NCBI GenBank assembly: GCA_046758505.1
Contig: JBHIAH010000012.1
Coordinates: 1-51,599 of the forward strand
DNA: 51,599 bases
Reading direction: 5' to 3'
From: Candidatus Methylomirabilales bacterium
GTDB taxonomy: Bacteria; Methylomirabilota; Methylomirabilia; Methylomirabilales; CSP1-5
Shown here: piece by piece, positions 20,906-40,145 of the stretch
Position numbering within the stretch: the stretch's first letter is position 1
How the letters are laid out: each line of letters starts with the position of its first letter
Notes under the pieces: generated by a model
Told to the model about the DNA's origin: nothing
Database searches by the model: none
What the model saw: the letters and a program-made list of their open reading frames with translations, nothing else
Made by a program: the position numbers and the translations under genes

Positions 20906-20971
20906 GGGCGTTATAGCTCCAGGGCCATTTGCCTTAAATTGGTGGCCCGATTGCACTAGTCCGCTCTCATG
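20906..20971 (-). promoter_or_regulatory. Putative promoter/operator, copy B, upstream of the MBL-ABC operon
   Basis: Minus strand TTTAAG-N17-TATAAC preceded by the palindrome AATCGG-GCCA-CCAATT; homologous to 2991-3056. Confidence 0.6.
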
Positions 20972-23381
20972 CCCGTCGGCGAACCCCGCGGATCAGCCAC
21001 CACTCCGCCAGCCCCACCACCCCGATGCCGAAGACAGCGTAAAGGTAAACAGTCACGGGCATGGCGGCCTCCAGGACGATGAAGTTCCACGAGGACAGGG
21101 ACATCATCAGTCCCTTCTCGCCGTTTGAGCCGTCCCAGGCCTGGATCGCGAAGGGAATGAGCCTCCCGAGCTCAAACGTCACGTCGCCGGTCCGGTCGTG
21201 GGGAACCAGGGAGCGCGTCACCACCACCCGCCACCGGCCCCGCCGCCACACCCCCTTGCCCGTAACATCCTGCGCCTCCCGTGAGGCCTCCACCACCGGC
21301 CGCTGAAATCCCTCTCCGCGCTCCTTGACCACGGGGCTGCCCCCGGCCTCGTTCAGGTCGGCCTTCCAGTGCCACAGCGCCACGGGCCGCCCGGGGCTGC
21401 CGAGGAAGAAATGCGGCCGCACAGGGCCCTCGGGAATGGTCAGCGGAAACTGAAGCCGCACGGCGTCACGCAGGCGTTCGCTCCGCTTCTCGGTCAGATC
21501 GAGCTTGGGGTACGTGAACTCGCCCAGCTCCGGACCCGGGCCCGGCTGATGCTGGACATCCTTCACGGGATCATCCCACTCCAGGAGAAAGGCGATGGCC
21601 TGGTCGTTATAGAGGGCCCGGACTGTCACGGCGTCCACGGAGTGATTCTCCCAGCGCGGCTTGGCCAGCACCTGGCCCGCCAGCGGCACCGCGAGGAAGG
21701 GTGCCTGGCGCCACTGTGGGTCATCCGGGTCCCTCGGCAGCTCCGCCGCGACTTTCGGCACCCTGAGGGCCAGGGCGGCTGACGGCTCCTCCGGGGTCTG
21801 CAGGGCCTTCACGTAGTGGGCCAGCGCCCAGCGGTCCTCCTCCGAGAAGGTGTCGGCATAGGAGGGCATCGGCGTGCCGTCCATTCCGGTGGAGAAGCGC
21901 ATGAAGATCTTCTGCACCTCGCGCCCGCCCTTGATCCGCCACCCTTTCGTGAAGTCGGCCGGCCGGATGGAGCGGTCCAGGTCATCCTTCAGCGTGGGCG
22001 CCGAGGGGCCGTCCGCGCGCCCCTCGTCGCCGTGGCACTCCCAGCACTTGGCCAGCCGGTAGAGCTCCTTCCCCCGGGCGAGCAGTTCGGGTGACGCGGA
22101 GACCTCCCGGGTCGGCTGGACCACGATGCCCGGCTCCTCAAACATATCTGGAGCAAACGTTTTGATGTAATAGATCACCCGCCACCGGTCGGCCTCCGAG
22201 AGCGTGGTCCAGCCAGACATCGCCGTGCCGGGCACCCCGCGCGTCACCACCCGGAAGAGATCCTCATCCGTAGGCGGCTCGCCCGACTCGGTAGTGCGGA
22301 GCTTGTAGATCCCTGCTGTGAAGTCGCGCGGGCGCGGGTTCAGGTAGGGCGCCACCGGCCCCTGGCCGTCTCCTTCCTCACCGTGGCAGACCTGGCAGCG
22401 CTTCACGTAGATTCGTCTTCCCCTCTCGATGTTCTCCGGCGTCTCCGATGGTCGGGCCTGGGCCCAGGCGGAGGACGGCCCAAGCCCGCCCCACGACCCT
22501 ACCGCGATGGTCCCGGGACCGGTTGCCTCGATCTTCTCGGGCTTCCGGGGCTCGACCCCTGCCAGGTCATAGGCCGCCAGGATCGCCTTCCATTTCTGCT
22601 CCTCAGTGAGATCCTCCTTCCAGATCGGCATCGCCGAGTCCCACGGGGTCGCCCCAGGCGGCAGCCCAGGGCCCCCTTCGGTGACGCGCCAGAAGGCGTA
22701 GGCTTCGACGACGGTGGCAATCGTGCCCGGATCGGTGAAGTCGGCCGGCTTCAGGCGAAAGCCCCAGCCCATGGGACCCGAGCCGTCGGCGGGGTCCCCG
22801 TGACAGGGCCGACAGTTGATCTGGAAGATCACCCGCCCCTCGGCGAGCGCGGCCTCCTGAAACGCGCCTCGCGCCTCCTCCAGAGGTCCCTCGAAGCCGA
22901 CCTTGCCCACCCACTCCTTCACCATCTCTTCACTCGGCTCGCGGAAGGGGTTCTTCAACCGCTCATACGCGCCGGGGATGGTGGGATGTTGGATTCTGAG
23001 GATTGTGGGGCTCTGGACTCGAGGAACGGCGCGCGCGTAGACGAAGCCTCCGGCCGTCAGCGGGATGAGGAGGAGGAGAATCAGGCGCGCCCTCCCCAGG
23101 AACCGCGCGTTCTGGCCGCGTGGATCCGGACCACGGAGGAAGGCCACGACCGGCCTGACAAACTCCCGGATGAACTCATCGCTCATGGTGATGTAGACCA
23201 GGGCACCCACCACCGCCAGGAGCCCGTACATGAAGAGGACGGCCCCGGGGACCGGGAGCGGCCGCTCCCTCCCGGTAAACCACATGGTCGCGTAGGGAAG
23301 AGCGTATTGAAGGCTCAGCCACACGACCGCCAGGGCAATCAGGGTGCTCCAGAAGAGGGGGATTCGGCGCCGGCGGCTCAT
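20967..23381 (-). CDS. Membrane-anchored triheme cytochrome c with C-terminal EB_dh (EbdC/NxrC-like DOMON) domain
   Basis: Three N-terminal TMs; CRPCH, CQVCH and CWECH; EWDDP..DAVRLQFP..WHWKAD..WRVVVTR..AWDGSNGE; C-terminal TM. Confidence 0.88.
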   Translation of the reverse strand: MSRRRRIPLFWSTLIALAVVWLSLQYALPYATMWFTGRERPLPVPGAVLFMYGLLAVVGALVYITMSDEFIREFVRPVVAFLRGPDPRGQNARFLGRARLILLLLIPLTAGGFVYARAVPRVQSPTILRIQHPTIPGAYERLKNPFREPSEEMVKEWVGKVGFEGPLEEARGAFQEAALAEGRVIFQINCRPCHGDPADGSGPMGWGFRLKPADFTDPGTIATVVEAYAFWRVTEGGPGLPPGATPWDSAMPIWKEDLTEEQKWKAILAAYDLAGVEPRKPEKIEATGPGTIAVGSWGGLGPSSAWAQARPSETPENIERGRRIYVKRCQVCHGEEGDGQGPVAPYLNPRPRDFTAGIYKLRTTESGEPPTDEDLFRVVTRGVPGTAMSGWTTLSEADRWRVIYYIKTFAPDMFEEPGIVVQPTREVSASPELLARGKELYRLAKCWECHGDEGRADGPSAPTLKDDLDRSIRPADFTKGWRIKGGREVQKIFMRFSTGMDGTPMPSYADTFSEEDRWALAHYVKALQTPEEPSAALALRVPKVAAELPRDPDDPQWRQAPFLAVPLAGQVLAKPRWENHSVDAVTVRALYNDQAIAFLLEWDDPVKDVQHQPGPGPELGEFTYPKLDLTEKRSERLRDAVRLQFPLTIPEGPVRPHFFLGSPGRPVALWHWKADLNEAGGSPVVKERGEGFQRPVVEASREAQDVTGKGVWRRGRWRVVVTRSLVPHDRTGDVTFELGRLIPFAIQAWDGSNGEKGLMMSLSSWNFIVLEAAMPVTVYLYAVFGIGVVGLAEWWLIRGVRRRA

Positions 23382-24373
23382 TTCAGAGTCTGGAGAAATG
23401 CCACGATGTCGTGAAGCTCCTCCACCGTGAGGATCTCCTTGAAGTTCTCCGGCATCAGCGAGGTCGTCTGGGGAACTTTCTGCTTGATCTCCTCCTTGGG
23501 GATCGTCACCACCTCCCCCTGGCTGTCCACTACCTGAATTCCCCCCTCGTCCTCCCCCTTGAGGATGCCGGTGATGTAGCGATCGTTCTTGGTGATGACG
23601 AGGATCGGCTCATAGCCGGAGGCGATCACCTTGGATGAGTCCAGGATCGACTCGATGAGGAACGTCAGATCCCGGGTGCCGGCGACGTGCGTCAGCTCAG
23701 GGCCCACGTCCCCGCCCTCGCCGTTGATGGTGTGGCACTTGGCACACCCCGCACTCGACTCGGGATCGAAGAAGAGCTCCTCCCCGCTCTCGGGATCGCC
23801 TGGAATGTACAGCCTCAGCGCTTCGGCCTCTCCCGCACGTGCGAGGCGAGCCAGGAGCCCCGCCGGAAGCTTGATGGCCGCCACATCCACGGTCCCGCCG
23901 AGGCTCTGGAGATAGGCAATGACGGCCCTAATCGCGTCTGGCGTGAGGCGGATGGGCGGGCGGAGGGGGTTAGGCATCTCGTTCTTGTATCCCTCAACCA
24001 CGTACGCCCCAGGCTCCAGCAACGACTCCACGAGATAGTCCGTCGCCGAGTAGGGCTTCCCTGTGGCCGTCGTGCGCTCCTTGGCCCGCTCAACAGCCCG
24101 CGCCCCGATCGCCAGCCCGAGGGGGCCCGGATCGCCCTGGTTGGGGGCCCGGATGGCGTTCCCCCGGCTCCCCACCGCGTGGCAGGTATAGCATTTCCCT
24201 TTCCCCCAGAAAATGGTTTCGCCGGCCTCTGGAGTGACGTTCTCCGCGGTGATCACCCCCGGGGCTCGCCGCTCTCGTTCACCGGAGATCCGGGTGAGCA
24301 CCTCGCCGATCCAGACGAAGACCAAAACAAGGGCGATGGTAAAGATGACCACCCCCATGAACGGCCGCCTCAC
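23378..24373 (-). CDS. Membrane-anchored diheme cytochrome c
   Basis: C-terminal part of ORF 23378..25885. GTG 24373 overlaps the upstream TGA. N-terminal TM, CYTCH..EMP and CAKCH..GPEL..SLMP. Confidence 0.88.
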   Translation of the reverse strand: MRRPFMGVVIFTIALVLVFVWIGEVLTRISGERERRAPGVITAENVTPEAGETIFWGKGKCYTCHAVGSRGNAIRAPNQGDPGPLGLAIGARAVERAKERTTATGKPYSATDYLVESLLEPGAYVVEGYKNEMPNPLRPPIRLTPDAIRAVIAYLQSLGGTVDVAAIKLPAGLLARLARAGEAEALRLYIPGDPESGEELFFDPESSAGCAKCHTINGEGGDVGPELTHVAGTRDLTFLIESILDSSKVIASGYEPILVITKNDRYITGILKGEDEGGIQVVDSQGEVVTIPKEEIKQKVPQTTSLMPENFKEILTVEELHDIVAFLQTLK

Positions 24374-26418
24374 CGCCGAGTCCCTCCGGTGAGGGGGTGG
24401 ACTGACTCGGGGACCAGGGCCTCGGTGACCTCTTTCTTCTCCCCCAGCCCGGCCAGCCAGAAGACAAAGGTCACCAGCCCCAGGAAGAGCAACACGATCC
24501 CTCCCACGACCCGCGCCATGTAGGCCATCGTGGGGGTGAACGCCCACGCCGAGGTGTCCTGGAGGACGGCGTAGACATGCCAGTCCTCCCGGAGCCCGGA
24601 GCGAATGAAGCCCATCAGCCCCATCAGCAGCACGATGGCCACGCAGAGCAAAATCAAGGCGTACTGCGAGCGCACCGGCATCCGCCCCCACCGGATCCCC
24701 CCCACCACCTCCGCCCCCCGGAAGAGCAGCAGATCGATTGTCGTGTTCCACAGCAGACACACCATCACCATGAGCCACTGCGCCACGGCGAGGTTGCGCA
24801 GAAACGGGTTCGCCTTCTCCATGATCACGAAGCCATAGATCCCGAGGACGAACACCGACGCCAGGATGGTCGAGGCGAAGAAGAGAGCCTGGGCCACTTT
24901 GCCCCGATCCCAGAGGGTCAGGACCCCCGTGAGCAGCACCATGCCGATCTGCCCCAGCAGGAGATACGCCGGCAGCGCGAAGTAGCGGGCGCGGTCCGGA
25001 GACAGGTCGAGGCCCTCGGGGTCCAGGGTCAAGAGGCCCCGGGCATACCACGCCAGGACCACGATCGAAACGGCCGCCCCCGCAGCCAGGACGATCTTCC
25101 CTCCGGCTCCATGCTCGGCGAAGGGCCGCGTGCTCCCCTTGTTGCCGCGCCGGTAGATCAGGAAGGAAAAGAAGGTCGAGAGGATGATGAGGTTCACCGC
25201 CGCGTTCTTGGCCGACATGAGGCCGAAGTATTTGAGGAAGGGATGGAACTGGCCACCCAGGGCCAGCTGCTCCTCGCCCGTGAGGGGGATGTTCCGGGGG
25301 GTCAGCCAGATCGCAAAGCAGAGCAGCAGGATCACGTTGATGTACTTGATGTACGGCTGATAGCGCTCGGCCCCGCTGATCCGCCCCATCCCCGACCAAA
25401 GGTAGTAGTTGCCGCCGATGAACAGCATCCCGATCAGGATGGCCTGGATGATGAAGGTCCAGGAAAACGCCCCGCCCATCATGTTGTTCCCCATCACCGG
25501 GCTCGCGGAGTACACCTCCCGTCCCAGGTAGTAGCCGGCAAACGGCAGCGGAATCAGGGCGGCCAGCCCCACGAAGTTCCCCACGTACCCCATCCAATCG
25601 TAGTGCGCGCGCTCCCCCTCGCTCCTGGCCCCCAGGAACCTGACGGCCGCGTAGGCCCCGACGATGAAGCCGCCAAAGGCAATGTTGGCGATGAACCGGT
25701 GGATGGCCAGGGGGATCCAGAGGGGGTTCGCTACCGCCTGCCACGTGGTCCCCACAAACTGGAACGTCTCCTGGTCGATCCCGCTGGGGGTCATCATGTA
25801 GGAGACCCAGGCGTTCGCCAGGAGCATGAGCAGCGTGCCCCAGAGGTTCAGCAGAATCCCCAGGAGGACGTGAAGCCCCTTCCACCGGCCCTGCATCCGG
25901 CCCCAGCCGTAGTAGTAAAGGTAGAGGGTGAAGCCCTCCGCGAAGAAGAGGAGGCCGTAGAGGTAGTAGGTCGTGTGGAAGATCGAGGTGAGGAAGGCCA
26001 TGAACGTCGGGTAGAGGCCGAACAGAGAGAAGACGAGCAGGCCCCCGAAGGCCGCCGTCGTGGAGAAGGCGGCGGAGAGGAGGGCGGTGAACTCATGGGC
26101 CAGGCGATCATAGCGGGCATCCCCGCCCCGCCAGCCGACGATCTCCGCGATCGAGGCGAAGATCGGGACGCCCAGGACGAAGGCCCCGAACATCAAGTGG
26201 AGCTGGGTGATGATCCAGATGACGAGGCGGGAGTTCCCGCCGAAGAAGGTTTGATAATCGGGGGAGAGCCGAGGTTGAGCAGCAGCTAAGCTTGTCGATC
26301 CCGCAGTGGACGGGTCAGCGGCAAGGACGGGGGCAGCAAGGATCGCCAGGACCCAGAGGCCCAAGGCCGCCAGGGTCGCCACCCGCCACGCTTGCACTCC
26401 CCCCCTCAGAGTGGTCAT
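24370..26418 (-). CDS. Second CydA-like ('bd-like') membrane protein, with N-terminal leader and extra TMs
   Basis: QLHLMFGAFVLG, EGFTLYLYYY, SYMMTP, NPLWIPLAIHRFIAN, MSAKNAA and MGLMGFIRSGLR..WHVY motifs. Paralog of 5205..6659. Confidence 0.87.
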   Translation of the reverse strand: MTTLRGGVQAWRVATLAALGLWVLAILAAPVLAADPSTAGSTSLAAAQPRLSPDYQTFFGGNSRLVIWIITQLHLMFGAFVLGVPIFASIAEIVGWRGGDARYDRLAHEFTALLSAAFSTTAAFGGLLVFSLFGLYPTFMAFLTSIFHTTYYLYGLLFFAEGFTLYLYYYGWGRMQGRWKGLHVLLGILLNLWGTLLMLLANAWVSYMMTPSGIDQETFQFVGTTWQAVANPLWIPLAIHRFIANIAFGGFIVGAYAAVRFLGARSEGERAHYDWMGYVGNFVGLAALIPLPFAGYYLGREVYSASPVMGNNMMGGAFSWTFIIQAILIGMLFIGGNYYLWSGMGRISGAERYQPYIKYINVILLLCFAIWLTPRNIPLTGEEQLALGGQFHPFLKYFGLMSAKNAAVNLIILSTFFSFLIYRRGNKGSTRPFAEHGAGGKIVLAAGAAVSIVVLAWYARGLLTLDPEGLDLSPDRARYFALPAYLLLGQIGMVLLTGVLTLWDRGKVAQALFFASTILASVFVLGIYGFVIMEKANPFLRNLAVAQWLMVMVCLLWNTTIDLLLFRGAEVVGGIRWGRMPVRSQYALILLCVAIVLLMGLMGFIRSGLREDWHVYAVLQDTSAWAFTPTMAYMARVVGGIVLLFLGLVTFVFWLAGLGEKKEVTEALVPESVHPLTGGTRR

Positions 26419-26441: not shown

Positions 26442-27218
26442 TTACTTGAATTCGAAAGCGACGTTGGCCTCGCCCCTAGGAGGAATGGCGACTTCCTGGC
26501 TGACCAGAACGGGCTCTCCGTAGATGGGACGACCATCCTTGTCCGACCCTTTCACCTCCCAGGACTCATGCCACGCCACCACCTTGTACGTCCCCGGCGG
26601 GATATCGGTGACCTTGAAGCGCCCGCGCTCGTCCGTGACCGCGAAGTAGGGATCCGGACGGACCACCATCCAGGCCTTCATGTGGGTGTGGGCATCGCAC
26701 TGGATGTCCATCACCCCGAATCTCTTCTTCCGCCCGAGTCTCTTGATCCGCCGGCTGACATCGAGCACCTGGTCCTGGAGGGGAAGGGCGAGGTTGAAGA
26801 CGGTCCTCTTCGATAGAAACCCGTGGGTGTTGTGGAGGATGGGGTCCGAGTTCCTGACCCTGGTCTTCGTCGCCGCGGTCACCGCCAGCACGTGCGGGAC
26901 GAAGAGACACTTGGTGTTGTCCAGGACCACGGTCTTCTTTTCGATCTTCTTCCCCTTGGCAATCCCCTCGATCCAGATCACCGCGTACCTGACCCCCTTG
27001 TTGGGCCCCAGGACCAGAGCCTCAGAGGCCACGGACTTCCCGCACAGGTCCTGGTTCTTCTTCACCGGGATCGGCGCCAGCTTGGGCGGGGCCCCCACGA
27101 ACTTCACGCTCCCCGTCAGGGTGCCCCCGTCCTTGACCTGGACGACATCATACCCCAAGGCCACGCCGGGGGTCGTCACGGCCAAGGCCACCATCAGACT
27201 CACCACGCATCGCCTCAT
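26442..27218 (-). CDS. Exported cupredoxin-like protein with carboxypeptidase-regulatory-like domain
   Basis: Signal peptide; FVPHV, NSDPILHNTH, CDAHTHM (type-1 Cu-like H/C/H/M) and IPPGTYKVVAWHE. ATG 27218. Confidence 0.8.
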   Translation of the reverse strand: MRRCVVSLMVALAVTTPGVALGYDVVQVKDGGTLTGSVKFVGAPPKLAPIPVKKNQDLCGKSVASEALVLGPNKGVRYAVIWIEGIAKGKKIEKKTVVLDNTKCLFVPHVLAVTAATKTRVRNSDPILHNTHGFLSKRTVFNLALPLQDQVLDVSRRIKRLGRKKRFGVMDIQCDAHTHMKAWMVVRPDPYFAVTDERGRFKVTDIPPGTYKVVAWHESWEVKGSDKDGRPIYGEPVLVSQEVAIPPRGEANVAFEFK

Positions 27219-27282: not shown

Positions 27283-28800
27283 TCACTCGAGGAGGAGCTC
27301 TCCCTCCAGGGCCTCCCAGACAGCTTTCCGGGTGACAACGCCAAGAAGACCCCACCACGCCTCGAGAGGGTTCCAGTCGTCGGTGATTGGCAATCCTCCG
27401 TCGTCTCGAAAGGAGAGCTGAACCGCGTACTGAGACCGAGCGGACACGGCCTGGCGCCTGGCGAGATAGAGGAGGTTCCCGAAATTTCCCTCAGGCCGTG
27501 TGGAAAAAACCTGGACCGTGGAGAACACCTGCCTGAGGGTCCGGTAGATCGACCGGGACACCCGGGACCCTTCTCCCTCCTTGAACCCCGTGAGGTTCAG
27601 CATGAAGACTCCGTCCCGGGTGAGGCGACGGGCGATGAGCCCGAAGCTCTCCCGCGTCAGGAGGTGAAAGGGAACGGTTTCGGCGAGGAAAGCGTCCAGG
27701 ATGACCGCGTCATACCGCTCTCGAGTGTCTCTGAGAAAGACCCGCCCATCGGCAATGATGACTCTCCCCGGCCCGGGTCGATACTCGAAGTAGCGGGCGG
27801 CCAGGGCGGGCATCCTGGGGTCGATTTCGACTACGTCAAGTCGAAGCCCGGCGCGGCTCAGCATCCCGGGCAGCACCCCGCCAGCCAGTCCGATGAAGAG
27901 CCCCCGCGCCCCGGTGCCAGGGGGAAAAGTGCCGGTGAGAAGCTCCGCCATGGCCCGGTGGACCTGAAAAACCGAGCGGCGGCTGACCTTTTCCATTCCA
28001 CTCTGGATCGTCCCGTCCACGAGGAGGTAACGACGGTCCTCGAGGTCCACGATGCGGACTTCCCCGTAGTACCCCTGGGAGCTGTACAGGATCCTCCCAT
28101 CCCTCGAAGCTGTGAGAGGAAGAAAAAGAACAAGAACGAGGAGGCTCCAGGGCAGCAGCAAGAAGGCGAACCGGCGCATCCCGGTCCTGAGGAAGGCGAC
28201 GATGGCCAGGAGAACGAGGGCAGAAGAAGCCAGAGCAAAGATCGTCGGAATCTCCACGTTGGGGATCAGCAGGAACCCTGTCCCGAGCGTCCCGAGCACG
28301 CTCCCCACCGTGGAGAGGGCGTAGAGAAATCCACCCGACCGACCCACCTCTGCCAGGCTTCGCGTATAAAGCCGCAGGGTGAGCGGGGTGACCATGCCCA
28401 GCAGGACCAGCGGGACGGCAAAGAGAAGCAGGGCGCTGACGAGCGCGCCCCCGCGGGGCCCTAGATGGGCCATCCCTTCGAGGATCGGGACACGAATCAG
28501 CGGGATGAGGAGAAGCCAGAGCCCCGCGGAGAAGACCACCAACGCCAGGCGGGGCAGGCCCGGGAATCGGTCCGCGACCGCTCCACCGATCCAGTACCCC
28601 GCCGCCAGGGAAAGGAGCGTAACGCTGATCAGAGCCGACCAGACGAAGAGGCCGACTCCGAAGTAGGGCATGATCGCCCGGGCCCCGGCTAGCTCAATAG
28701 TCATCACCGCTGCCCCGCACACGCATGCGGTGAGGGCCAGGAGGAATCCCGGCGCGCTCCTCGCGGAACTAAGGGGAGAGGGCGGATACATCGAGCTCAT
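27283..28800 (-). CDS. Fused MFS-like/spermidine synthase-like protein
   Basis: N-terminal TM block (ELAGAR..GYWIGG..LYALSTVGS), then IGLAGG, VEIDP, DGRVFL and ILDAF..PFHLLT. Confidence 0.88.
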   Translation of the reverse strand: MSSMYPPSPLSSARSAPGFLLALTACVCGAAVMTIELAGARAIMPYFGVGLFVWSALISVTLLSLAAGYWIGGAVADRFPGLPRLALVVFSAGLWLLLIPLIRVPILEGMAHLGPRGGALVSALLLFAVPLVLLGMVTPLTLRLYTRSLAEVGRSGGFLYALSTVGSVLGTLGTGFLLIPNVEIPTIFALASSALVLLAIVAFLRTGMRRFAFLLLPWSLLVLVLFLPLTASRDGRILYSSQGYYGEVRIVDLEDRRYLLVDGTIQSGMEKVSRRSVFQVHRAMAELLTGTFPPGTGARGLFIGLAGGVLPGMLSRAGLRLDVVEIDPRMPALAARYFEYRPGPGRVIIADGRVFLRDTRERYDAVILDAFLAETVPFHLLTRESFGLIARRLTRDGVFMLNLTGFKEGEGSRVSRSIYRTLRQVFSTVQVFSTRPEGNFGNLLYLARRQAVSARSQYAVQLSFRDDGGLPITDDWNPLEAWWGLLGVVTRKAVWEALEGELLLE

Positions 28801-30280
28801 AGAGGGTCATAGCTCCCATGGCCGGGGTCAAGGCGGAAACGCCGCTGAACTCCCGGACAGCCCGAAGCCCGACCCCGGCCGGCGCGGCTCCCTGCAGCAC
28901 AGCCGAAGTCACCAGGACCGTCTGCGGGATCACCGCCAGGGAGTCGAGGGTCGGAACGATCTCGTCTCCCGAGCGGACGCGCTGGACCGTCAGGGCGGGG
29001 AGATAGTAGTCGAAGAGCCGTTTCTCCTCCCCGCCCAGGAGAAGCGTTTCCCCCGGGGGGTAGTGGGTACGGACAAACTCGACGAGCTGGAGAGGAGCGG
29101 GCATGTGGCTCCGTTCCGCTTCAACCGACCGCCACCCCCCGACCGCTAGGGGCATGACGAGGAGGGCTGACACCAAGAGAGGGCCCCACCCCCGCCCGAG
29201 CCTTTCCCCCGCCCGGATCACCCCTCGACTCACGGGGAGCAGGAGGAGCGGAATCAGCGGGAGCAGATGCCGGCCCTTGTCGACGTTCTGCCCGAGCAGA
29301 ACCCAGATGAGGTACGGTGCTCCGGCAGCCAGGAGAAACTTCCCCCACGTCGGTCCCCCGCTTGCGGCCCCCCGCAGCGCGGGACGGAACTGAGACAGAA
29401 GAGTCAGAGCCAGCAGCAGGGAGAGGAGCAGCGCCATCGCCAGCTCGCGCATGGCGTACCCTCCCAGGCCGTAGGCGAAGAGGCTGTGCAGCAAGCGCAG
29501 AGGGCGGCTGACCGGATCGGGGTCTGTGAACAAGGCCCCTCCCCAGTCAGTGAAGTGACCACGGATGAAGCGGAGACTCTCCCGCGCGAAGGGCGACCAC
29601 CCCTCGCGGGCCACTTGCCAGTGAAGCCACAGCGCCACAGCCGCGGTAAAGGCCACCACGGGGCGGATCGTGGCTGGCCAGCTCCACGATCTCTTCAAGC
29701 GCCAGAGGAGGAAGAGCCACGTAAGGGCGAAAGGGAAATAGGAGAGGCGAACGCCGAGGGCCATTCCCAGGGCAACCGAGGCGAGGGAGAAGAGAGCCCA
29801 GCCGTGGCGGTCATCGCGTTCGTACGCCATCCACGCCAGGGCAAGGAAGAGGGTCACAAAAAACGTGCCGGTGGCATCGGACAGGGGCTTTGTGCTGACG
29901 AGCCAGTGAAAGGGGTGAACGCCCAGAAGGAGCACGGTGAGCAGGGCCTCTCTCGATCCGAGCATGCGGGAGGCCAGCGCATAGAGGGGAACCAGGGTCA
30001 AGCCGCCGAAGCACGCGCTGGTCAAGGTCAGGGCCCGGAGATCGTCCTCGAAGATCCTCCATGCCCCCCGAACGATCCAGACAAAGACCGGGTAGCCGGG
30101 AAAGTGAGGTTGAAACTCCGCGAGGGAGTACCAGTGGATCGCCAAGGCGAAATCCACAGCATCCCATTCGCCGAGCCACGGGGCGGCATACAGGGCCCTC
30201 CCCACAACGGCCAAAAGCGCCAGGGAAAGCCCCTTCAGGACCACGTCCTTCAGCGGGCCTGGCTTGGCTCGGCCGGTCAC
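28769..30280 (-). CDS. GT-C membrane glycosyltransferase (family 39/PMT-like)
   Basis: WDAVDF..PHFPGYP loop, multi-TM, LSD, GVR and RHLLP motifs. GTG 30280 overlaps the upstream stop. Confidence 0.75.
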   Translation of the reverse strand: MTGRAKPGPLKDVVLKGLSLALLAVVGRALYAAPWLGEWDAVDFALAIHWYSLAEFQPHFPGYPVFVWIVRGAWRIFEDDLRALTLTSACFGGLTLVPLYALASRMLGSREALLTVLLLGVHPFHWLVSTKPLSDATGTFFVTLFLALAWMAYERDDRHGWALFSLASVALGMALGVRLSYFPFALTWLFLLWRLKRSWSWPATIRPVVAFTAAVALWLHWQVAREGWSPFARESLRFIRGHFTDWGGALFTDPDPVSRPLRLLHSLFAYGLGGYAMRELAMALLLSLLLALTLLSQFRPALRGAASGGPTWGKFLLAAGAPYLIWVLLGQNVDKGRHLLPLIPLLLLPVSRGVIRAGERLGRGWGPLLVSALLVMPLAVGGWRSVEAERSHMPAPLQLVEFVRTHYPPGETLLLGGEEKRLFDYYLPALTVQRVRSGDEIVPTLDSLAVIPQTVLVTSAVLQGAAPAGVGLRAVREFSGVSALTPAMGAMTLYELDVSALSP

Positions 30281-31731: not shown

Positions 31732-33170
31732 CGAACTCCTCTACCCCGCCCGAGGCTCCGAATGTACGCGAGGAGATCGTGGACCTCCTTCTCCCCGAGG
31801 ATCCCTTCCCACGGCGGCATGAGCAGGGATTTGCCCCGTGCCAATCCCCCATGGAGGATGACGGCCTCGAGGTCTTGATCGGTCCGGTTGCCCATGATCC
31901 GAGAATCCTGGAAGTCTCTGGGGCGGGGATCGAGCGAGGCTGCCGTGGGCCCATCTCCCCGTCCCTCCTCCCCATGGCAGACGACACAGTGGATGCCGAA
32001 CAGCGCCCGACCGCGAGCGGGGTCTCCGGCCCCGGGCGCCGGGGGAGGGGAAAGAGCGGCCCGTGGGCGGACCAGCCCCAACTCCCTTCGCTCTCCCGCT
32101 GCGGGCCGGCGAAAGACCAGACGAATCACATCCGAGAAGTTGTGGTAGACGGAGGCATCGAAGACGGCAATGCCGAAGAACTGCTCTGCTCCCCGGCCCG
32201 GGTGGAACTGCACGTCGTCAGCATCGCCGGTGCGAAGCCGCCGCTTCAGCTCCAACGTCCAGACCCCGCCGGCGTACCGGCCGACCCCCTCCACATGGCC
32301 GCGCATGTCGGGAGGAACCTCAGGCGGCAGGAGGATCCCCGCCACCCGGTCCCCGGCCTTGAAGGCGATCTCCTCCACGGGGGCGAGAGAGTCAGGCCCC
32401 GTCACCCGGATATAGGGGGCGTGAAGATCGCCCCCGGCCTGAGGGTTGGGGGCATACATGGGCCGATCCTCAGTGACGGGGTCCAGGTTGAACTCGAAGA
32501 TGTCCGGGCTCCGGTCCAGGCCGTCGGGGGAGCGGCCGATGGGCTTCTCCCCGGGCCGCTCTTCTACGAATTTCTCGAAGTCGATGTGGCTGATCCGCCC
32601 GTCTTTGACCCACTTGAACGGTGCCGTCTCAGCGGCCCGCCACTCCCAGTGGTCCACCGTCATCCCCGCTTTTTCCGTCCACATGTCATGCGGGGCGAGG
32701 CCATCGATCTCCGGATAGCTGGAGAGATGGCAGAGGGCCCGGCAGCCGATGAGAGGGAAAAGGCGGCTTCCGGCGTTCCAGTTGACGGCGAAGGCATCGT
32801 CGGCGATCTCTCGCTCCTCGTGCCACTCCTCGCCGTCGAAGACCCATGGCTTGTACTCGAGGCTCTGGGTTGGGTCCCGCCAGCGGGCCAGCAGGAAGAA
32901 CTGCCGAAATGTGTACAGAGCGCGAAGCTCGACCTCCATGATCCGCCGGTTCCCAAACTTCTTGATCGGAAAGGCCTTCACGCTGAGAGGAGCGGCCTTT
33001 TCCCAGACCTTGTCCATCTCCCCATCGATCACCGGCTTGCGTAGGGTCCGGGAGGCCACGAGCTCGAGATATGAGGTCCTGCGGGGCGGCGGAATCTCGC
33101 CGCCTCTGGCGGCTACGAGCCCCACGCCCAGGATGGAAAGGAGCGCCAGGAGCGCGGCGATCTGTTTCAC
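31728..33170 (-). CDS. Exported EB_dh-domain protein with C-terminal cytochrome c
   Basis: Signal peptide from GTG 33170; PVIDG, RWRDPT, GCRALCH (CX3CH), DHWEWRA, WTLELKR; C-terminal CVVCH..MPPW. Confidence 0.8.
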   Translation of the reverse strand: MKQIAALLALLSILGVGLVAARGGEIPPPRRTSYLELVASRTLRKPVIDGEMDKVWEKAAPLSVKAFPIKKFGNRRIMEVELRALYTFRQFFLLARWRDPTQSLEYKPWVFDGEEWHEEREIADDAFAVNWNAGSRLFPLIGCRALCHLSSYPEIDGLAPHDMWTEKAGMTVDHWEWRAAETAPFKWVKDGRISHIDFEKFVEERPGEKPIGRSPDGLDRSPDIFEFNLDPVTEDRPMYAPNPQAGGDLHAPYIRVTGPDSLAPVEEIAFKAGDRVAGILLPPEVPPDMRGHVEGVGRYAGGVWTLELKRRLRTGDADDVQFHPGRGAEQFFGIAVFDASVYHNFSDVIRLVFRRPAAGERRELGLVRPRAALSPPPAPGAGDPARGRALFGIHCVVCHGEEGRGDGPTAASLDPRPRDFQDSRIMGNRTDQDLEAVILHGGLARGKSLLMPPWEGILGEKEVHDLLAYIRSLGRGRGVR

Positions 33171-33180
33171 GCTCGCCGCC

Positions 33181-35046
33181 TCACTCGATCCATGACCGAG
33201 GCGCGACGCCAATGGCGTCGTAGAGGAAGCGGATGATCTTCCAGATCTCGTCATCGCTCAGGTCGTCCTTCCATCTCGGCATGGCGGAGTCCCAGGGCCG
33301 CGACGGCGGCGGCAAGCCCCGTCCCCCCTCCCTGATCCGCCAGAAGGCATAGGACTCGTGGAGCTGAGCGAGGCGCTCCGGGTGGGTCAGGTCGGCCGGC
33401 CGGGGCTCCAGGGCGTCGGCAAACAGGCCGCGACCGTCCAGTGCGTCCCCGTGGCAGAAGACGCAGTTCTTGAAGTAGAGCGTGTTCCCCTGCCTGACGA
33501 TCTCGGGCGTGTCCGGCAGCGGATTTTCCAGCGCCACGTATTCGGCCGGGAGCTCCGGGTGAACCAGGCGGGGACCCTCCTCCGGGGCTCTCTGGTCGGC
33601 CCCTCCAACGAGGAGGAGCCAGTGCCAGGTGCTGAGGCTCCCCTTCTCCCACCGCTCACTCGCGGATCCGTCCCAGACATAGAACCCGATGGGGATAGCC
33701 TTGCCCTTGCTGAACCGGGCATCGGGCGCTTTCCCGGTGGGGCTCAGCCTCCGTCCCATCACCACAGACCACCGACCGTTCCGGTACGCGCTGCTCCCCC
33801 ACAACCCCTTCCTGCGGGACGGCAAGGGCTTCTGGGTCCCGAGACCATGAGCGGAGTATTCCTTGACGGAAGCCCGGCCTGCCTCCCAGTGCCAGAGAAT
33901 GACAGGCCATCGGGGGTCCCCCAGCAGGAAGTACGGTTTGCCCGTTGCCTCCGAGCGGCCGGAAGGGAACTGGATAGCCACCGCGTCGTTGAAGCTTCCG
34001 TCTTGCCCCGTGACGAGGCTCCGCGTCCCGTCATCCCACTGGAGGAGAAAGGCAATCTGCTGAGAGTTGTAAAGGGCCCGGACCGTCAGGGAGGTGACAG
34101 AGGGCGTATGAAGGCGAGGGCGCTGGACAACCTGGCCGGCCAGCCGCAGTTCCACCGCCTCAGCGCTCTCCCAGTGGGGATCTTGGGGACTCCTCGGGAG
34201 GGGCCCCGGCAGGGCCCTTGCGCGGATAAGCGTTCGGCCCTCGGATAGCGGTCGATCCACCGAGCGGGAGGAGACGTAGTAGGCAAGCTGCCACCGCTCC
34301 TCCTCGCTGAGGCTGTCCTCAAAGGAGGGCATCGGAGTCCCGTCAAGACCCGTCGTGAAGGCCCGGTAGATGTCCTCGACCCCACTCCCACCACGGTAGC
34401 TCCTCCGTCGGGTGAGGTTTCCGGGTCGGATCGGGACCTCCCAGTCATCTTTCAGAGTGGGAGCCGACGGGCCATCTCCCCGCCCCTCCTCTCCGTGGCA
34501 CTCCCAGCATTTCATCTTCCGGTAGATCTCGCCCCCCTTGGACACGGCCTGCTCGCTGAACGGGATAGGCGACCCGAGGGAGGCCCGCTCGGGAGGGAGC
34601 TCCTCTTCAAACAGCTCTGAGAACGATTTGATATACCGAACCAGCTCCCAGCGCTCAGCCTCCGAGAGCTTCTCCCAGCCCGGCATGGCGCTCCCCGGCA
34701 TCCCCCGGGTGATCGTCCGGAACAGGTCCTCATCCGTGGGAACCTCTCCGCTGGTCGTCGTTCTGATCTTGAAGACCCCCGTGGTGAAGTCGCGGGGCCG
34801 GGGGGAGAGCAAGTCCGCCGCCGGGCCATCCCCTCTCCCTTCCTGGCCGTGGCAGCCGGCGCAGTAGCGGTCGTAGAGGGCCTTCCCCTCTGGGGGTTGC
34901 CCTTGAGCCCGTGCCGGTCGGACGGCGAACGGGCTCACGATCAGGAACACGCTCAGGGCGAACAGGAGAAGACCCCTGACTCTGGGGCCCCTGGATCTTG
35001 GGATCAACGACACCTCCAAGAGGACGACCCCGGGGGGAGGTGTCAC
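33181..35046 (-). CDS. Triheme cytochrome c with central EB_dh domain
   Basis: GTG 35046 overlaps the upstream stop (exact start uncertain). Signal/TM, CAGCH, CWECH, EB_dh (WDDG..DAVAIQFP..WHWEA..WDGS), then CVFCH..PWDSAMP. Confidence 0.87.
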   Translation of the reverse strand: MTPPPGVVLLEVSLIPRSRGPRVRGLLLFALSVFLIVSPFAVRPARAQGQPPEGKALYDRYCAGCHGQEGRGDGPAADLLSPRPRDFTTGVFKIRTTTSGEVPTDEDLFRTITRGMPGSAMPGWEKLSEAERWELVRYIKSFSELFEEELPPERASLGSPIPFSEQAVSKGGEIYRKMKCWECHGEEGRGDGPSAPTLKDDWEVPIRPGNLTRRRSYRGGSGVEDIYRAFTTGLDGTPMPSFEDSLSEEERWQLAYYVSSRSVDRPLSEGRTLIRARALPGPLPRSPQDPHWESAEAVELRLAGQVVQRPRLHTPSVTSLTVRALYNSQQIAFLLQWDDGTRSLVTGQDGSFNDAVAIQFPSGRSEATGKPYFLLGDPRWPVILWHWEAGRASVKEYSAHGLGTQKPLPSRRKGLWGSSAYRNGRWSVVMGRRLSPTGKAPDARFSKGKAIPIGFYVWDGSASERWEKGSLSTWHWLLLVGGADQRAPEEGPRLVHPELPAEYVALENPLPDTPEIVRQGNTLYFKNCVFCHGDALDGRGLFADALEPRPADLTHPERLAQLHESYAFWRIREGGRGLPPPSRPWDSAMPRWKDDLSDDEIWKIIRFLYDAIGVAPRSWIE

Positions 35047-36623
35047 GGGGTTCCGCGCGAGATGAGGCGCTCCACCGGGAGAATCCGGAGCGTGCTCCGA
35101 AGCCGCGGCCCGCCGAGCCATCCGCTCTTCCCCGCGCGCTCCACCACGGCAACCACCACCTCCCCGTCTGGGGTCACGGCAAAATCGCCCACGTACCCGC
35201 CCAGCATCCGGCTGCATCCTACCGATTCCAGCACCCCTTCGCCGACCGCGAGCGCGCACAGCTGGCCGTGCTTGAACTGGAACAGGGTCGGGACCGCCAC
35301 CAATCCCGCGCGCCCGAACCGGAGGATATTGTTCGCCAGGAGGATCTCGTTCCTGCCGTCTCCGTTGAGGTCCACGGCAAGGACCTTGCTACCCTTGAAC
35401 GCGAATTCCCTGCCCTCCTGCTGGGGGTAGATTCTGATCGGGGTCGCCTCGAACTTCCGGGTCGCCGTGGCGATGAGGCGGCCGTCGGAGGAGTAGAGAG
35501 CTGGCCGGCGGTGGCGATCGAGGATCAGGCGCTCGGACCGCCCATCTCCGTCCCAGTCAAACACCGAGAGGGTGTAGAGCGAGACCCGCTCACGCAAGCG
35601 GGGAAACGGGGCCTCCACGTACCGGCCGTTGCTCCAGATCGCCCGCCGGATCGAGTTCATGAAAGGATCGGAAACCCCTGACTGCTGCCAGAAGAGATCC
35701 GCCACGCCGTCACCGTCCCAGTCTCCGGCAACATGGAGAAAGACGCCGCGGCCGGGAAGGACGCCGCTCAGTTCTCGGTACCGAGTCCGGTTGTGCTCGA
35801 TGACGAACGAGCGGACCGCTCGGCTCCCGTGACGGGTGACGAAGATCTCCGCTCTCCCGTTTCGATTGACATCAGCCACTGCCACGTGGATCAGCCGCCC
35901 CTTCCCCTTGGCCTCGTAGATCTTCCGAGGCTCCCCGCGATCCCCCTCAAGCGGGACCAGCCAGACGTTGTCGCCCTCCGTGAAAAGGATCTCCTTCCGA
36001 CCATCGCCGTCGGTATCCCCCACGTCGAGGCTCAGAATCCCGCCTTCGAAGGCAACCGTCTTCCGAACCTTGGAATGGCGGGGATCGACTCGCGGGCGGG
36101 AAGGCCGGGGGCTCCGCACGGCCTTCTTCTCTCCCCGACGCGGCGAGGGCCCGAGCTGGACCTCTTCGAAGACAACAAGGGCGCCGCGCCGGGTCTCGAT
36201 GGCTCGGAGGCGGAGACTGCCGGCAGCGGGCCCGGGGGAGCCCAAGATCACCCCGTGAATCTCAAGCTCGTCTGCAAGACGTTTCAGGCCGGCGGGTGAC
36301 AGGATCTCTCCGAACCCCTTGCTCCGCCACCCGGTCGCGGCCCGCACGACCTCCTCATCAACCACCCGAAGCCGGCCTGTCTCCAGCAAACGCTTGACCA
36401 GCGCAGCCCTCACGGCGCTGAAGAGCTGAGTTGCTTCCTCCGTGCGCGCCACGAACTCCAGGACGACCACGGCCGGCGCCGGAGCCTCCGCGGAGGAAAA
36501 CGTTCGCTCGACAAGGACGGCAAACGCCTCGATGTCGGGCTCCGACCCGGCCGCGGGGAAGGAGAGACCGACGACTCCCCCCAGCAGGCAGAGCCCAACG
36601 ACACCGAGGCCTTTCTTCGTCAT
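35043..36623 (-). CDS. Exported FG-GAP/VCBS-repeat (beta-propeller) protein
   Basis: Signal peptide from ATG 36623; five DxDGDG-type repeats (DTDGDG, DVNRNG, DWDGDG twice, DLNGDG). Confidence 0.8.
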   Translation of the reverse strand: MTKKGLGVVGLCLLGGVVGLSFPAAGSEPDIEAFAVLVERTFSSAEAPAPAVVVLEFVARTEEATQLFSAVRAALVKRLLETGRLRVVDEEVVRAATGWRSKGFGEILSPAGLKRLADELEIHGVILGSPGPAAGSLRLRAIETRRGALVVFEEVQLGPSPRRGEKKAVRSPRPSRPRVDPRHSKVRKTVAFEGGILSLDVGDTDGDGRKEILFTEGDNVWLVPLEGDRGEPRKIYEAKGKGRLIHVAVADVNRNGRAEIFVTRHGSRAVRSFVIEHNRTRYRELSGVLPGRGVFLHVAGDWDGDGVADLFWQQSGVSDPFMNSIRRAIWSNGRYVEAPFPRLRERVSLYTLSVFDWDGDGRSERLILDRHRRPALYSSDGRLIATATRKFEATPIRIYPQQEGREFAFKGSKVLAVDLNGDGRNEILLANNILRFGRAGLVAVPTLFQFKHGQLCALAVGEGVLESVGCSRMLGGYVGDFAVTPDGEVVVAVVERAGKSGWLGGPRLRSTLRILPVERLISRGTP

Positions 36624-37738: not shown

Positions 37739-37947
37739 GAGGCAATCCTCCTTCGCTTGACAGCTCAGCCGCGGAGGGGTCTACTGAAAAGCGCCCTCAC
37801 GCGGTTGAGTCCGTGTGGTGGTGTGAGGGGCTGGCCCGCGCCTGCCAGGGTCAGGACCAGCCCCTCGCCTCTCCTCCCGCCTCTCCTCCCACCTCCTTCC
37901 TGTTTTCCCCTCCCTGATGCGCCCGAAAGCCTATCTTCGGGAAGGGA

Positions 37948-38571: not shown

Positions 38572-38660
38572 ACTCCCCCTCCCCTCTCTCGGTTTTCAGA
38601 ACCCCTGAAGCCCCGGAGTTCAACCCCAATACTTCCCGAACACTCCCCGATTCCTAAACA

Positions 38661-38677
38661 CGCAAAGGCCGTGCCAG
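38661..38677 (-). promoter_or_regulatory. Sigma-54 promoter of the porin-cytochrome operon
   Basis: Minus strand CTGGCACGGCCTTTGCG, near-consensus TGGCAC-N5-TTGC. Confidence 0.85.
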
Positions 38678-38860
38678 CGGCGATCACGGAGACAAGGTAC
38701 CACATGGTGTTGTTGACAAAAGACTTTTTGCGAGAGGCGGTGGGAGGGGATACGGGCTGGGAGGTCTTCGCGCGCGCATTTCGGTGCGCAAGAGTGCAAT
38801 GCCGTGCGCAGTGACAGGCCCGGTTACGATGGTCGGAGCGGGGGACGGCTCCTCTGCGGG
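38661..38860. repeat. ~200 bp duplicated sigma-54 regulatory region, copy 1 (copy 2 at ~40256-40455)
   Basis: Shared blocks GGCGGTGGGAGGGGAT, GCGCGCA-N6-TGCGCA.GAGTGCAATG and GTGACA.GCCCGGTTACGATGG. Confidence 0.8.
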
Positions 38861-38947
38861 TGTCGGCCCGGACCCGCCGGTTTCGGGGACGGGATCGAGG
38901 CACGCGCGAGAGCGAACCCCGGTCCAGGGGAGCCAGAGCGCCCGCTC

Positions 38948-39712
38948 CTACTTGACGGGGAAGCTGAAATTCACTCTCCCCTGCTCGCCCGCCTTCACCG
39001 TCACCCGAACCTCCTGGCGCCCCAATTTCTCGTGCCATGCCGTGAGGGTATAAGTTCCGGAAGGGACATCCGTGATCCTGTACGCTCCATCCTCCCCCGT
39101 AAGCGCGTAGTAGGGATGGTCCAGGACGGCGATCCACCCGTTCATGAAGTCATGAGAATCGCACATGAGCTCCACCAGCCCAGACCGTTTGACCCTCTTC
39201 CTGATCACCTGACCTTGAATCGGCTGGGCCAGATTGAACAGCGTCCGGCCCCGGAAAATGGAGTGGGTATTGTGGAGCACGGGGTCCTCATTAACGATCT
39301 CCAGCTTGGTCCGGGTGCGCACCACCAGGAAATGCGGGACGAACCGTCCCCCCCGATTGAAGAGCCGCGGGCGATGGTCCGGCCACGGCTTCCCCTCCGT
39401 GATCCCCTCGACGGTGATCAGCACATTCTTGATCTTCCCTGCCCGCGACACGATCAGCCGCTCGTCGGGGAGTTTCTCGCCGAAGACATCGGCGTTCTTC
39501 GTCACCCAGATCACATAGGGCCCCGGGGGTGACCCCTTATAGGTGGCCTCGCCGGCGATAGTGCCGCCGTTGGGAACGGCCTTCTCCCGGTACTTCTCCC
39601 GGCCCTCTCCCGGCCCCGCCAGGAGCAACGGGAGAAGGCCGACCCCCACTAGCGCGCTGATCCAGAGCGAAGGAGAGGAAGCGACACCCCTAGCGGGGAA
39701 GAACATAGACAT
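38948..39712 (-). CDS. Exported cupredoxin-like protein with carboxypeptidase-regulatory-like domain (paralog of 26442..27218)
   Basis: FVPHF, NEDPVLHNTH, CDSHDFM and VPSGTYTLTAWHE motifs. Confidence 0.8.
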   Translation of the reverse strand: MSMFFPARGVASSPSLWISALVGVGLLPLLLAGPGEGREKYREKAVPNGGTIAGEATYKGSPPGPYVIWVTKNADVFGEKLPDERLIVSRAGKIKNVLITVEGITEGKPWPDHRPRLFNRGGRFVPHFLVVRTRTKLEIVNEDPVLHNTHSIFRGRTLFNLAQPIQGQVIRKRVKRSGLVELMCDSHDFMNGWIAVLDHPYYALTGEDGAYRITDVPSGTYTLTAWHEKLGRQEVRVTVKAGEQGRVNFSFPVK

Positions 39713-40145
39713 AGCCCACCATCGGCCCTTCCTTTTCGGGACTCACATGGTTGTTGCAGACCATCTTGAACGTCCCGGCCTTGGTTGCAACGAACCTGAT
39801 GGTCTTCTCCTCCCCCCTGTTGATCTCGGTCTCGGGCACCCCGAACGCCTTGATCTCGATGAGGTGCTTCGACCCCTTGACGGCGTGGATTCTCAGAACG
39901 ACGGTGTCGCCCTTGTTGACCACGATGAACCCGGGATTGAAGACGTACCGCTCGATCTCCTTCACCGACCCCAGGTTCCGATCCACCACGGGGGCCTCGC
40001 CGGACTTTGCCTTCCATTTCCACTCGCCCGTGACGATGATGAACTCTTTCTCCGCCGCTTGCGCCAACATCGGTCCCACTGAAAGGAGCAGAAGGCCGAC
40101 GCAGACTCCCAACAGGCCAACTCGCCACACTCGTGTGAGGTTCAT
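39690..40145 (-). CDS. Exported cupredoxin-domain protein
   Basis: Signal peptide; FNPGFIVVNKGDTV, H, AGTFKMVCNNH-x8-MVG. Confidence 0.85.
   Translation of the reverse strand: MNLTRVWRVGLLGVCVGLLLLSVGPMLAQAAEKEFIIVTGEWKWKAKSGEAPVVDRNLGSVKEIERYVFNPGFIVVNKGDTVVLRIHAVKGSKHLIEIKAFGVPETEINRGEEKTIRFVATKAGTFKMVCNNHVSPEKEGPMVGYVYVLPR

Follow-up and report, generated by a model that had tools for sequence, protein, structure and literature searches.

A sigma-54 operon that joins a bd-like cytochrome module to a heme-free porin cassette in a Methylomirabilia bacterium

Does a porin gene that lies among cytochrome genes mark a route for electrons across the outer membrane? The question is raised by positions 20967-40145 (minus strand) of a stretch of 51,599 nucleotides from a Methylomirabilia bacterium, which was analyzed at its full length and is called the window below. 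The genes of this span, numbered g01-g14 in transcription order, had been taken in a sequence-only reading for an electron conduit between the outer and inner membranes or for a redox-coupled metal acquisition system. The operon was found to consist of two gene modules that travel separately and here stand behind a pair of sigma-54 motifs. Module A is the 5' part (g03-g10), with a helical protein, a porin, a flavoprotein and a glycosyltransferase-like protein of the GT-C type at its core, and module B is the 3' part (g11-g14), which includes a bd-like membrane cytochrome. As judged from the predicted proteins, the operon is probably not an outer-membrane electron wire. With modest confidence, we favor a reading in which a known bd-like membrane set would carry periplasmic electrons inward and a co-regulated, heme-free porin cassette would import metal ions.

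Gene content, promoters and recurrence of the two modules

All 14 genes of the span lie on the minus strand, and the gap was 64 bp or less at 11 of the 13 gene junctions (the remaining two measure 376 and 209 bp), which agrees with the co-oriented, mostly abutting genes described earlier. Stop/start overlaps at the junctions continue across both operon halves. The earlier count of 15 genes was one too many; a 189-amino acid (aa) open reading frame (ORF) at 38568-39137 overlaps a real gene and a promoter and had no family match. Family matches recovered the claimed porin (Porin_O_P), FG-GAP protein, three EB_dh domains and CydA-like protein, and the four cytochromes carry nine CxxCH motifs (3+1+2+3) plus one CX3CH (CRALCH, within the g07 EB_dh region), exactly as had been counted. 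Among the three proteins called cupredoxin-like, g01 matched a Pfam cupredoxin and is nitrosocyanin-like; for g02 and g11 the label comes from a motif only. No catalytic molybdenum (Mo) or nickel subunit was present among the 14 proteins, also as claimed. Three non-redox genes in the middle of the cluster (g08, g09 and g10) had been passed over in the sequence-only reading.

The motif TGGCAC-N5-TTGC was found ahead of g01 and g03, in support of the two sigma-54 promoters proposed earlier; the count of 2 compares with 0.05 expected, and 0 of 100 shuffles reached 2. The duplicated segment at promoters P1 and P2 is 199 bp long with 80% identity between the copies. The scan found 0 sigma-70 promoters, and terminator-like sites numbered 9 vs. 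13 expected. A search for RNA runs over 30300-39700 gave none. The promoters and genes are as follows.

40146..40454, minus strand: promoter P1, sigma-54 -24/-12 motif at 40257-40271, inside the segment duplicated at P2
39690..40145, minus strand: g01, secreted nitrosocyanin-like cupredoxin (H94, C130, H133, M142)
38948..39712, minus strand: g02, secreted protein with copper-type motif HNT...CDSHDFM and a carboxypeptidase-regulatory-like domain; start uncertain
38572..38859, minus strand: promoter P2, sigma-54 motif at 38662-38676, within the other copy of the duplicated segment
37948..38571, minus strand: g03, all-helical secreted protein (unnamed family) with YxY at the mature N-terminus and a GxPGxFGxG loop
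36650..37738, minus strand: g04, heme-free, acidic outer-membrane porin with OprO/OprP-type fold and conserved E70-E72-E74-H75
35043..36623, minus strand: g05, secreted FG-GAP/VCBS repeat protein
33181..35046, minus strand: g06, secreted cytochrome with two heme c sites, an EB_dh domain and one heme c site; start uncertain
31728..33170, minus strand: g07, secreted protein with an EB_dh domain (with CX3CH) and one heme c site; two genes in genomes G251 and G560
30277..31731, minus strand: g08, cytoplasmic flavoprotein of the PRK07208 family, UDP-galactopyranose-mutase-like
28769..30304, minus strand: g09, PMT_2 (GT-C type) membrane glycosyltransferase-like protein, WDxVDF...QPHFPGYP motif
27283..28800, minus strand: g10, fused protein resembling the major facilitator superfamily and spermidine synthase (NF037959)
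26442..27218, minus strand: g11, second copper-motif protein (HNT...CDAH...M) with a carboxypeptidase-regulatory-like domain
24370..26418, minus strand: g12, bd-like (OR-N type) CydA homologue, no CydB
23378..24373, minus strand: g13, membrane-anchored diheme cytochrome c
20967..23381, minus strand: g14, membrane monoheme cytochrome c fused to an alt-NxrC-type protein (diheme, EB_dh, C-terminal membrane helix)

The two modules were followed separately through other genomes. Of the 15 bd-like loci tabulated outside the window, 14 have the complete core of a CydA-like protein, a diheme cytochrome and an EB_dh cytochrome, the single exception (G012) being a locus that ends at a contig edge. Ten non-self porin loci were compared (G251, G252, L071, L072, L073, L074, G376 twice, G521, and G530), and in nine of them no cluster cytochrome or bd-like gene lies beside the porin; the exception is G251. 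Both ends of the unit are visible in G252, G521 and G530, and the other porin loci without cytochromes are cut on one side by a contig end.

The pairing of modules A and B nevertheless recurs, in two lineages only. In the Nitrospinota genome G251, 12 of the 14 genes lie on one contig, rearranged and with a sigma-54 motif ahead of each half, together with kinase/regulator, Mrp, PCP_red and radical-SAM genes, and a gene of the insertion sequence (IS) type closes the cluster. A lack of synteny elsewhere, which would have told against the sequence-only reading, was thus not observed, since nearly the whole cluster is syntenic in this one other lineage. Vertical co-inheritance, with the bd-like proteins of the window and G251 as one clade, was rejected (p-AU, approximately unbiased test, 2.6e-5; quick tree, 16 rows), so the pairing arose twice or survived gene replacement. 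On a 9-kb contig of G560, homologues of g06, g07, the helical gene, g08 and g09 lie behind a gene with a molybdopterin-binding domain.

The bd-like module, its possible electron donors and the host genome

Module B is, by its predicted proteins, an already described gene set of nitrite oxidizers. The excerpted text of PMC3578206 reports an alternative NxrC, mono- and diheme cytochromes c, two cupredoxin-like proteins and a bd-like oxidase without quinol residues as conserved in Nitrospina, Nitrospira and Kuenenia. In the excerpts of PMC6606698, alt_NxrC_2 has a signal peptide, a diheme region and a C-terminal helix, is clustered with two cytochromes and bd-like_3, and is highly transcribed. 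TO_1 of Ca. Manganitrophus, as given in the excerpts of PMC9040806, equals in composition the bd-like set linked to nitrite oxidoreductase (NXR). The TO_1 composition (a bd-like protein, two cytochromes c and a periplasmic cytochrome b, i.e., an alt-NxrC with a C-terminal helix) is found in g12, g13 and g14. A match to a characterized complex, which would have told against the sequence-only reading, is thus half borne out: the 3' half equals a known gene set, one known from description rather than from biochemistry.

Alignment of g12 with Escherichia coli CydA placed H74, E161 and H240 on H19, E107 and H186, and the position of E99 is occupied by an invariant tyrosine, Y154. The alignment stops at H186 and leaves equivalents of M393 and E445 unaligned; H186, M393 and E445 are ligands in CydA. 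The g12 subunit has no CxxCH, and the adjoining next gene encodes a cytochrome c, not CydB. The AlphaFold model (predicted local distance difference test, pLDDT, 89.6) has 15 long membrane helices plus one N-terminal helix, with membrane helices continuing where the Q-loop would be, and bd oxidases were the only fold matches at E<0.001 (template modeling (TM) scores 0.33-0.41). At least 6463 homologues of g12 were found among 7996 candidates scored. The closest named ones are labelled Rokubacteria and NC10 (80-87%), and g12 was placed in a supported clade with Brocadiales, Scalinduaceae and Nitrospinota sequences. Matches were detected in 12 of 40 relatives and were strong in 11 of the 40 (CydA-like match below 1e-100). 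The g14 product is a triheme EB_dh cytochrome with four hydrophobic helices, and its counterpart is split into two genes in G006, G019, G251 and G000:C110. A PDB sequence search with g11 gave no match.

The neighbors of module B differ among genomes. They include NxrAB, a chaperone and an EB_dh cytochrome in one cluster (G006); a Cyc2-like gene and a diheme cytochrome (G019:C33); pyrroloquinoline quinone (PQQ) dehydrogenases (G005 and G017); and a cluster of an AioA-like Mo enzyme with two peroxidases (G000:C45/G214:C36). This variety within a single clade of genomes suggests that module B is likely a general periplasm-to-membrane electron sink, with O2 or quinone as the acceptor, and not a subunit of NXR.

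The window is contig C12 of bin G000, and equal DNA (99.94-99.97% identity) is present in G214, a bin of another family in the same class; G214:C36 likewise equals contigs C45 and C110 of G000. One of the two bins likely holds foreign contigs, and the host is a Methylomirabilia bacterium under either bin. At least three contigs are near-identical across the families (C12, C45 and C110 of G000 vs. C21, C64 and C36 of G214), and five other G214 stretches were unmatched in G000. By tetranucleotide composition, C12 was the second most deviant of 46 large G000 contigs and slightly nearer to a 154-kb G214 sample (0.0077) than to G000 (0.0098). A periplasmic-type NxrA is encoded in both bins (G000, 1572 bits to PDB 7b04_B; G214, 58% to 7b04_B). 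Four Cyc2-like genes were found in G000 and none in G214; the label is based on an N-terminal motif plus a heme site, and no library model matched.

Further redox loci were recorded in these and related genomes. A second bd-like locus lies in the window at 4030-11041 and 11398 (minus strand), 10 kb downstream of the operon on the same strand. It encodes a Mo enzyme of unassigned family with a twin-arginine translocation (Tat) signal (TRRSFL), a 4Fe-4S subunit, a 145-aa monoheme protein, a TorD-like chaperone, a divergent 498-aa bd-like protein and a membrane diheme cytochrome, is preceded by its own sigma-54-like motif and activator, and has an 81-87% identical set in G019:C25. On G000:C17 and C45 (L061:15063-20000, L062:1-690, L029:7431-13269), an AioA-like Mo enzyme is present in two copies, accompanied by a Rieske subunit and two di-heme peroxidase genes, a putative iodate reductase layout (IdrABP1P2). 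Contigs C24, C53 and C119 of G000 hold several ORFs with 8-9 CxxCH, with five multiheme ORFs on C24. One row of G019:C33 (L019:9676-18212, Methylomirabilales) has a Cyc2-like heme-porin, a diheme cytochrome, a bd-like protein (71% to g12), a diheme protein, a split alt-NxrC and a copper-motif gene; on its predicted proteins, this row is a better conduit candidate than the window locus. A second cupredoxin-porin arrangement was seen in G000:C87 (L059:4950-8313), where a paralogous g01-g02 pair (66%, 50%) is followed by a small protein and a BBP2 porin.

Upstream of the operon, the window holds the following features.

40507..43469, minus strand: sigma-54 activator response regulator and histidine kinase, directly upstream of the operon; orthologues flank the module in G019 and G251
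43441..44762, minus strand: PCP_red-domain protein and Mrp/NBP35 ATPase, belonging to the maturation genes found alongside the bd-like module in relatives
48101..49470, minus strand: decayed second copy of the 5' cassette, with an intact helical paralogue (70%), a 53-aa porin fragment and a broken cytochrome fragment

Two other duplications in the window (2584-2861 / 15719-15994, 88%, and 44365-44627 / 45061-45323, 86%) consist of fragments that precede the methylmalonyl-CoA mutase region and the Mrp gene.

The porin and its cassette

The g04 porin has 362 aa and no cysteine or heme motif in the mature chain. Its closest Foldseek matches were OprO/OprP and general porins (TM score about 0.5; model pLDDT 60, with a poor N-terminal third). 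The chain is acidic (48 D/E vs. 25 K/R), and the residues E70, E72, E74 and H75 of the ExExEH stretch are kept in 37-39 of 40 aligned rows. The word-based search returned 38 homologues. A further, distant porin in G033 (25%) has no other cluster gene at its locus. In G252, L071, L072 and L073 the porin is followed by the flavoprotein, with GT-C where the contig reaches and the helical gene in G252 and L072; L074 has the order porin-GT-C-helical, and porin-helical pairs occur in G376 (twice), G521 and G530. A complex prediction for the porin and helical protein scored 0.00 (controls not folded).

Cytochromes of the MtrAB type are decaheme, the MtrB barrel has about 26 strands, and Cyc2 is an N-terminal heme c motif fused to a barrel. 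As an MtrB-, MtoB- or PCC-type protein, g04 was rejected on its length, its OprO/OprP-size barrel and the maximum of three CxxCH per cluster protein, located in separate single-heme domains; as a Cyc2 it was rejected on the lack of CxxCH and of cysteine. A porin-cytochrome complex requires at least one multiheme cytochrome able to span the barrel, according to the excerpted text of PMC9040806. The heme-free porin and the limit of three hemes per protein thus do not support a porin-cytochrome conduit, and a porin beside cytochromes is insufficient to call a metal-oxidation conduit in metagenomes.

The helical protein g03 (mature chain of about 180 aa) belongs to a family of 165 clusters at 50% identity, in which two N-terminal tyrosines of the mature chain and the GxPGxFGxG loop stand out as nearly invariant. 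Tyr, Gly and Pro are the only residues so conserved. The weak matches of the family were to imelysin (E 0.0008-0.024), EfeO (E 0.024) and Fea1 (E 0.0005), all under the family cut-offs. An ESM Atlas feature search with the helical protein gave scores under 0.9 and no family, and a PDB profile search with the helical alignment gave a best E of 0.017 among mostly helical noise, with EfeO third of 66. Many homologues carry long low-complexity linkers, which are Ser/Thr/Pro-rich in the Bacillota forms. The closest solved structures to g08 were eukaryote-type UDP-galactopyranose mutases (E 1.6e-22).

The distant loci place these genes beside FTR1 permeases. On a Bacillus plasmid, the helical gene lies between GT2 (a family 2 glycosyltransferase) and FTR1, followed by a full-length g09 homologue (26%, E 4e-36), and the locus also has an epimerase, a UPF0104 protein and an alkaline-phosphatase-family protein. 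The order in Aeromonas is six-heme protein, FTR1, g08 homologue (42%), helical gene and g09 homologue. A distant helical member adjoins TonB, ExbBD, PepSY and TonB-receptor genes. The redox-coupled metal acquisition proposed earlier gained partial support from the FTR1 neighbors, the weak imelysin/EfeO/Fea1 likeness and the acidic porin motif. We hold only tentatively, somewhat short of even confidence, that the helical-porin-GT-C-flavoprotein cassette is an undescribed metal-uptake system that ranges from Bacillota to Gammaproteobacteria, Nitrospirota, Nitrospinota and Methylomirabilota. Searches of titles and abstract beginnings in an open-access library turned up no account of module A or of the combined A+B operon. 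With FTR1 neighbors in culturable bacteria, the function of the helical family is open to ordinary genetics.

Within the phylum, a close porin and a full-length GT-C were found in G000 and G214 only (251 genomes), and a full-length GT-C was found in 1 of 301 Nitrospirota. GT-C matches occurred in 110 of the 251 phylum genomes; outside G000 and G214 they were weak (at most 68 bits), lay mostly at the N-terminus and were left out of the orthologue count. The helical profile matched 33 of 159 genomes in family f9 and about 29 in the G251 phylum, and these matches were set aside as distant fusions (to a membrane domain or di-heme peroxidase) in other neighborhoods; of the 20 helical-profile loci fetched, G560, G376, G521 and G530 alone were counted as module A. 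In L177, L178, L188 and L189, the helical domain forms a fusion of about 650 aa with a di-heme peroxidase domain, immediately followed by a phosphonate-type binding protein and an ATP-binding cassette (ABC) transporter, and ORFs of about 650 aa carry the helical match in most matching genomes of the G251 phylum. An unannotated operon of Aeromonas caviae (NZ_AP026896.1, L099:1895-11385) encodes a small membrane protein, a 989-aa six-CxxCH protein, FTR1, a mutase-like flavoprotein, the helical protein and two GT-C-like proteins, and by its gene content looks like a redox-linked iron uptake system. In G483 (L227:7515-11183, Nitrospirota), a distant helical gene stands with genes for a small barrel-like protein, a membrane protein and a Cyc2-like protein (34% to the G019 protein).

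A proposed division of labor, its alternatives and known systems

In the reading that we favor, a Tat-exported Mo enzyme would donate electrons to module B, with an NXR-type enzyme as the best candidate and the Mo enzyme encoded 10 kb downstream as another; PQQ enzymes may also serve as periplasmic donors. Electrons would enter the EB_dh heme b of g14, or that of the soluble g06 or g07, and then pass the c hemes of g14 and g13, and the copper proteins would act as shuttles. The b hemes of g12 would reduce O2 without quinol or hand the electrons to quinone. The acidic porin may admit a metal cation, most likely Fe and possibly Cu, which g03 would bind or escort in the periplasm, and g08 and g09 may glycosylate a periplasmic or envelope acceptor needed by the metal system. 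From its position and the motifs, the adjacent two-component system would switch on both modules, and their co-regulation could supply metal for a complex with about ten c hemes, several b hemes and three copper sites, or for the cell at large.

Several points weigh against this reading. FTR1 (PF03239) was not found in G000, G214, G251 or G252, and the inner-membrane step of metal uptake is therefore missing here. The window has no GT2 or flippase for a lipid-linked GT-C donor, and its promoters are of the sigma-54 type. The imelysin/EfeO likeness of the g03 family, as far as profile and fold comparisons can tell, falls below every family cut-off (Atlas TM score about 0.5), and in the aligned sequences neither HxxE nor any other clear metal ligand is conserved (H119 in 9 of 57 rows). 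The ExExEH stretch of g04 is in a poorly modelled part of the prediction (pLDDT under 50). In G251 and G560, module A is accompanied by g06 and g07, which blurs a strict division into redox and non-redox modules. Finally, NXR and module B co-occur imperfectly, with a close NxrA in 7 of the 11 genomes that have a strong bd-like match and four close-NxrA genomes without that match, a count limited by incomplete bins and kinship.

Module A might instead be an envelope glycosylation or surface cassette with no metal role, associated with module B through shared regulation only, in which the mutase-like enzyme would make a furanose sugar nucleotide, GT-C would move it to the helical protein or a lipid, and the porin would be the product channel. 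The three conserved genes of sugar or transferase type, the additional enzymes of the Bacillus locus, the restriction of near-invariant helical residues to Tyr, Gly and Pro and the long linkers are all in keeping with such a role, but FTR1 is adjacent in both readable distant loci and porin-helical pairs lack a sugar enzyme in G376, G521 and G530, and we regard it as rather unlikely. A chance mosaic, with mobile cassettes gathered in a redox island and functionally unlinked halves, would explain why module A is rare and patchy, why a decayed copy lies 10 kb upstream, why an IS-type gene closes the G251 cluster and why the contig is a compositional outlier in G000. It is very unlikely given the overlapping stop/start junctions through both halves and the recurrence in G251 of 12 genes, the regulator and two sigma-54 motifs, there with a bd-like gene that is not sister to g12.

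Two further alternatives make the operon a single redox system. If Fe(II) or Mn(II) were oxidized in the periplasm with no cytochrome in the outer membrane, a cation-selective porin with the ExExEH motif and a new metal-binding helical protein would deliver the metal, the soluble EB_dh cytochromes and copper proteins would oxidize it, and electrons would flow through the bd-like oxidase to O2 in one energy-conserving system. In its favor, one promoter serves both modules and both soluble EB_dh cytochromes here, and they share one cluster in G251; the pairing either has more than one origin or persisted through gene replacement; the bd-like module follows a Cyc2-like gene in G019; and Aeromonas joins module A with a six-heme protein and FTR1. 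We nonetheless judge this proposal to be decidedly unlikely, since porin cassettes with both ends visible lack cytochromes in G252, G521 and G530, EB_dh domains partner Mo enzymes (as in G560, where g06 and g07 follow the molybdopterin-binding-domain gene), and Fe(III) or Mn oxide formed in the periplasm would need an export route, of which none is encoded. The electron conduit of the sequence-only reading, a new porin-cytochrome class that would lead extracellular electrons via the porin to the bd-like protein in the inner membrane, draws on the co-transcription here, and clustering in G251, of a porin, four cytochromes, three copper-type proteins and a bd-like gene. It is extremely improbable with a small barrel free of heme motifs and cysteine, single-heme cytochrome c domains throughout, no extracellular cytochrome and nine of ten porin loci without a cluster cytochrome; moreover, the Cyc2-like genes elsewhere in G000 could serve that function.

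Compared with known outer-membrane systems, the window cluster differs from MtrAB/MtoAB, PCC_1 and Cyc2 in having no multiheme wire and no heme on the barrel. The phosphate-selective porins OprP and OprO have a basic, arginine-lined anion pore; g04 shares their fold and Pfam match, but its chain is acidic with ExExEH. A three-component glycosylation system consists of GT2, a flippase and GT-C, of which the window holds GT-C only and the Bacillus locus has GT2 and a UPF0104 protein. Imelysins are defined by an HxxE motif in the excerpted text of PMC3143127. Like the imelysin/EfeUOB clusters described there, module A has a secreted all-helical protein, an FTR1 neighbor (in Bacillus and Aeromonas) and heme proteins nearby. 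Compared with imelysin and EfeO proteins, g03 is about half the size, has no conserved GxHxxE and, with its short mature chain, falls short of the two four-helix-bundle domains of that superfamily. Unlike EfeUOB clusters, the operon has no EfeB/DUF1111 and has an extra GT-C and mutase-like flavoprotein, and no FTR1 was found in its genome.

The OR-N family of the cytochrome bd superfamily has His19 in the first helices, no quinol site and no CydB, as given in the excerpts of Murali, Gennis and Hemp (10.1101/2021.01.16.426971). In accord with that account, g12 keeps His19, has no quinol Q-loop, no heme c motif and no CydB, and lies in an operon with alternative electron donors. It has about 70 residues (two helices) more than the shorter relatives, and the OR-N1 and OR-N2 subfamilies are distinguished by 14 transmembrane helices and tree placement, compared with the 15 long helices and N-terminal helix of the g12 model. 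Nitrite and manganese oxidizers presumably use the bd-like (OR-N/TO_1) complex as their respiratory outlet. Like the excerpted Nitrospina/Nitrospira/Kuenenia set and TO_1, the window encodes a bd-like protein without the quinol loop, mono- and diheme cytochromes c, an alternative NxrC and cupredoxin-like proteins. Unlike the Nitrospina/Kuenenia form, nxrABC and the chaperone are not in the window cluster but on other contigs of G000 and G214, and, unlike the NXR-linked set, the window has a monoheme cytochrome fused to the alt-NxrC, two extra soluble EB_dh cytochromes and a joined porin cassette.

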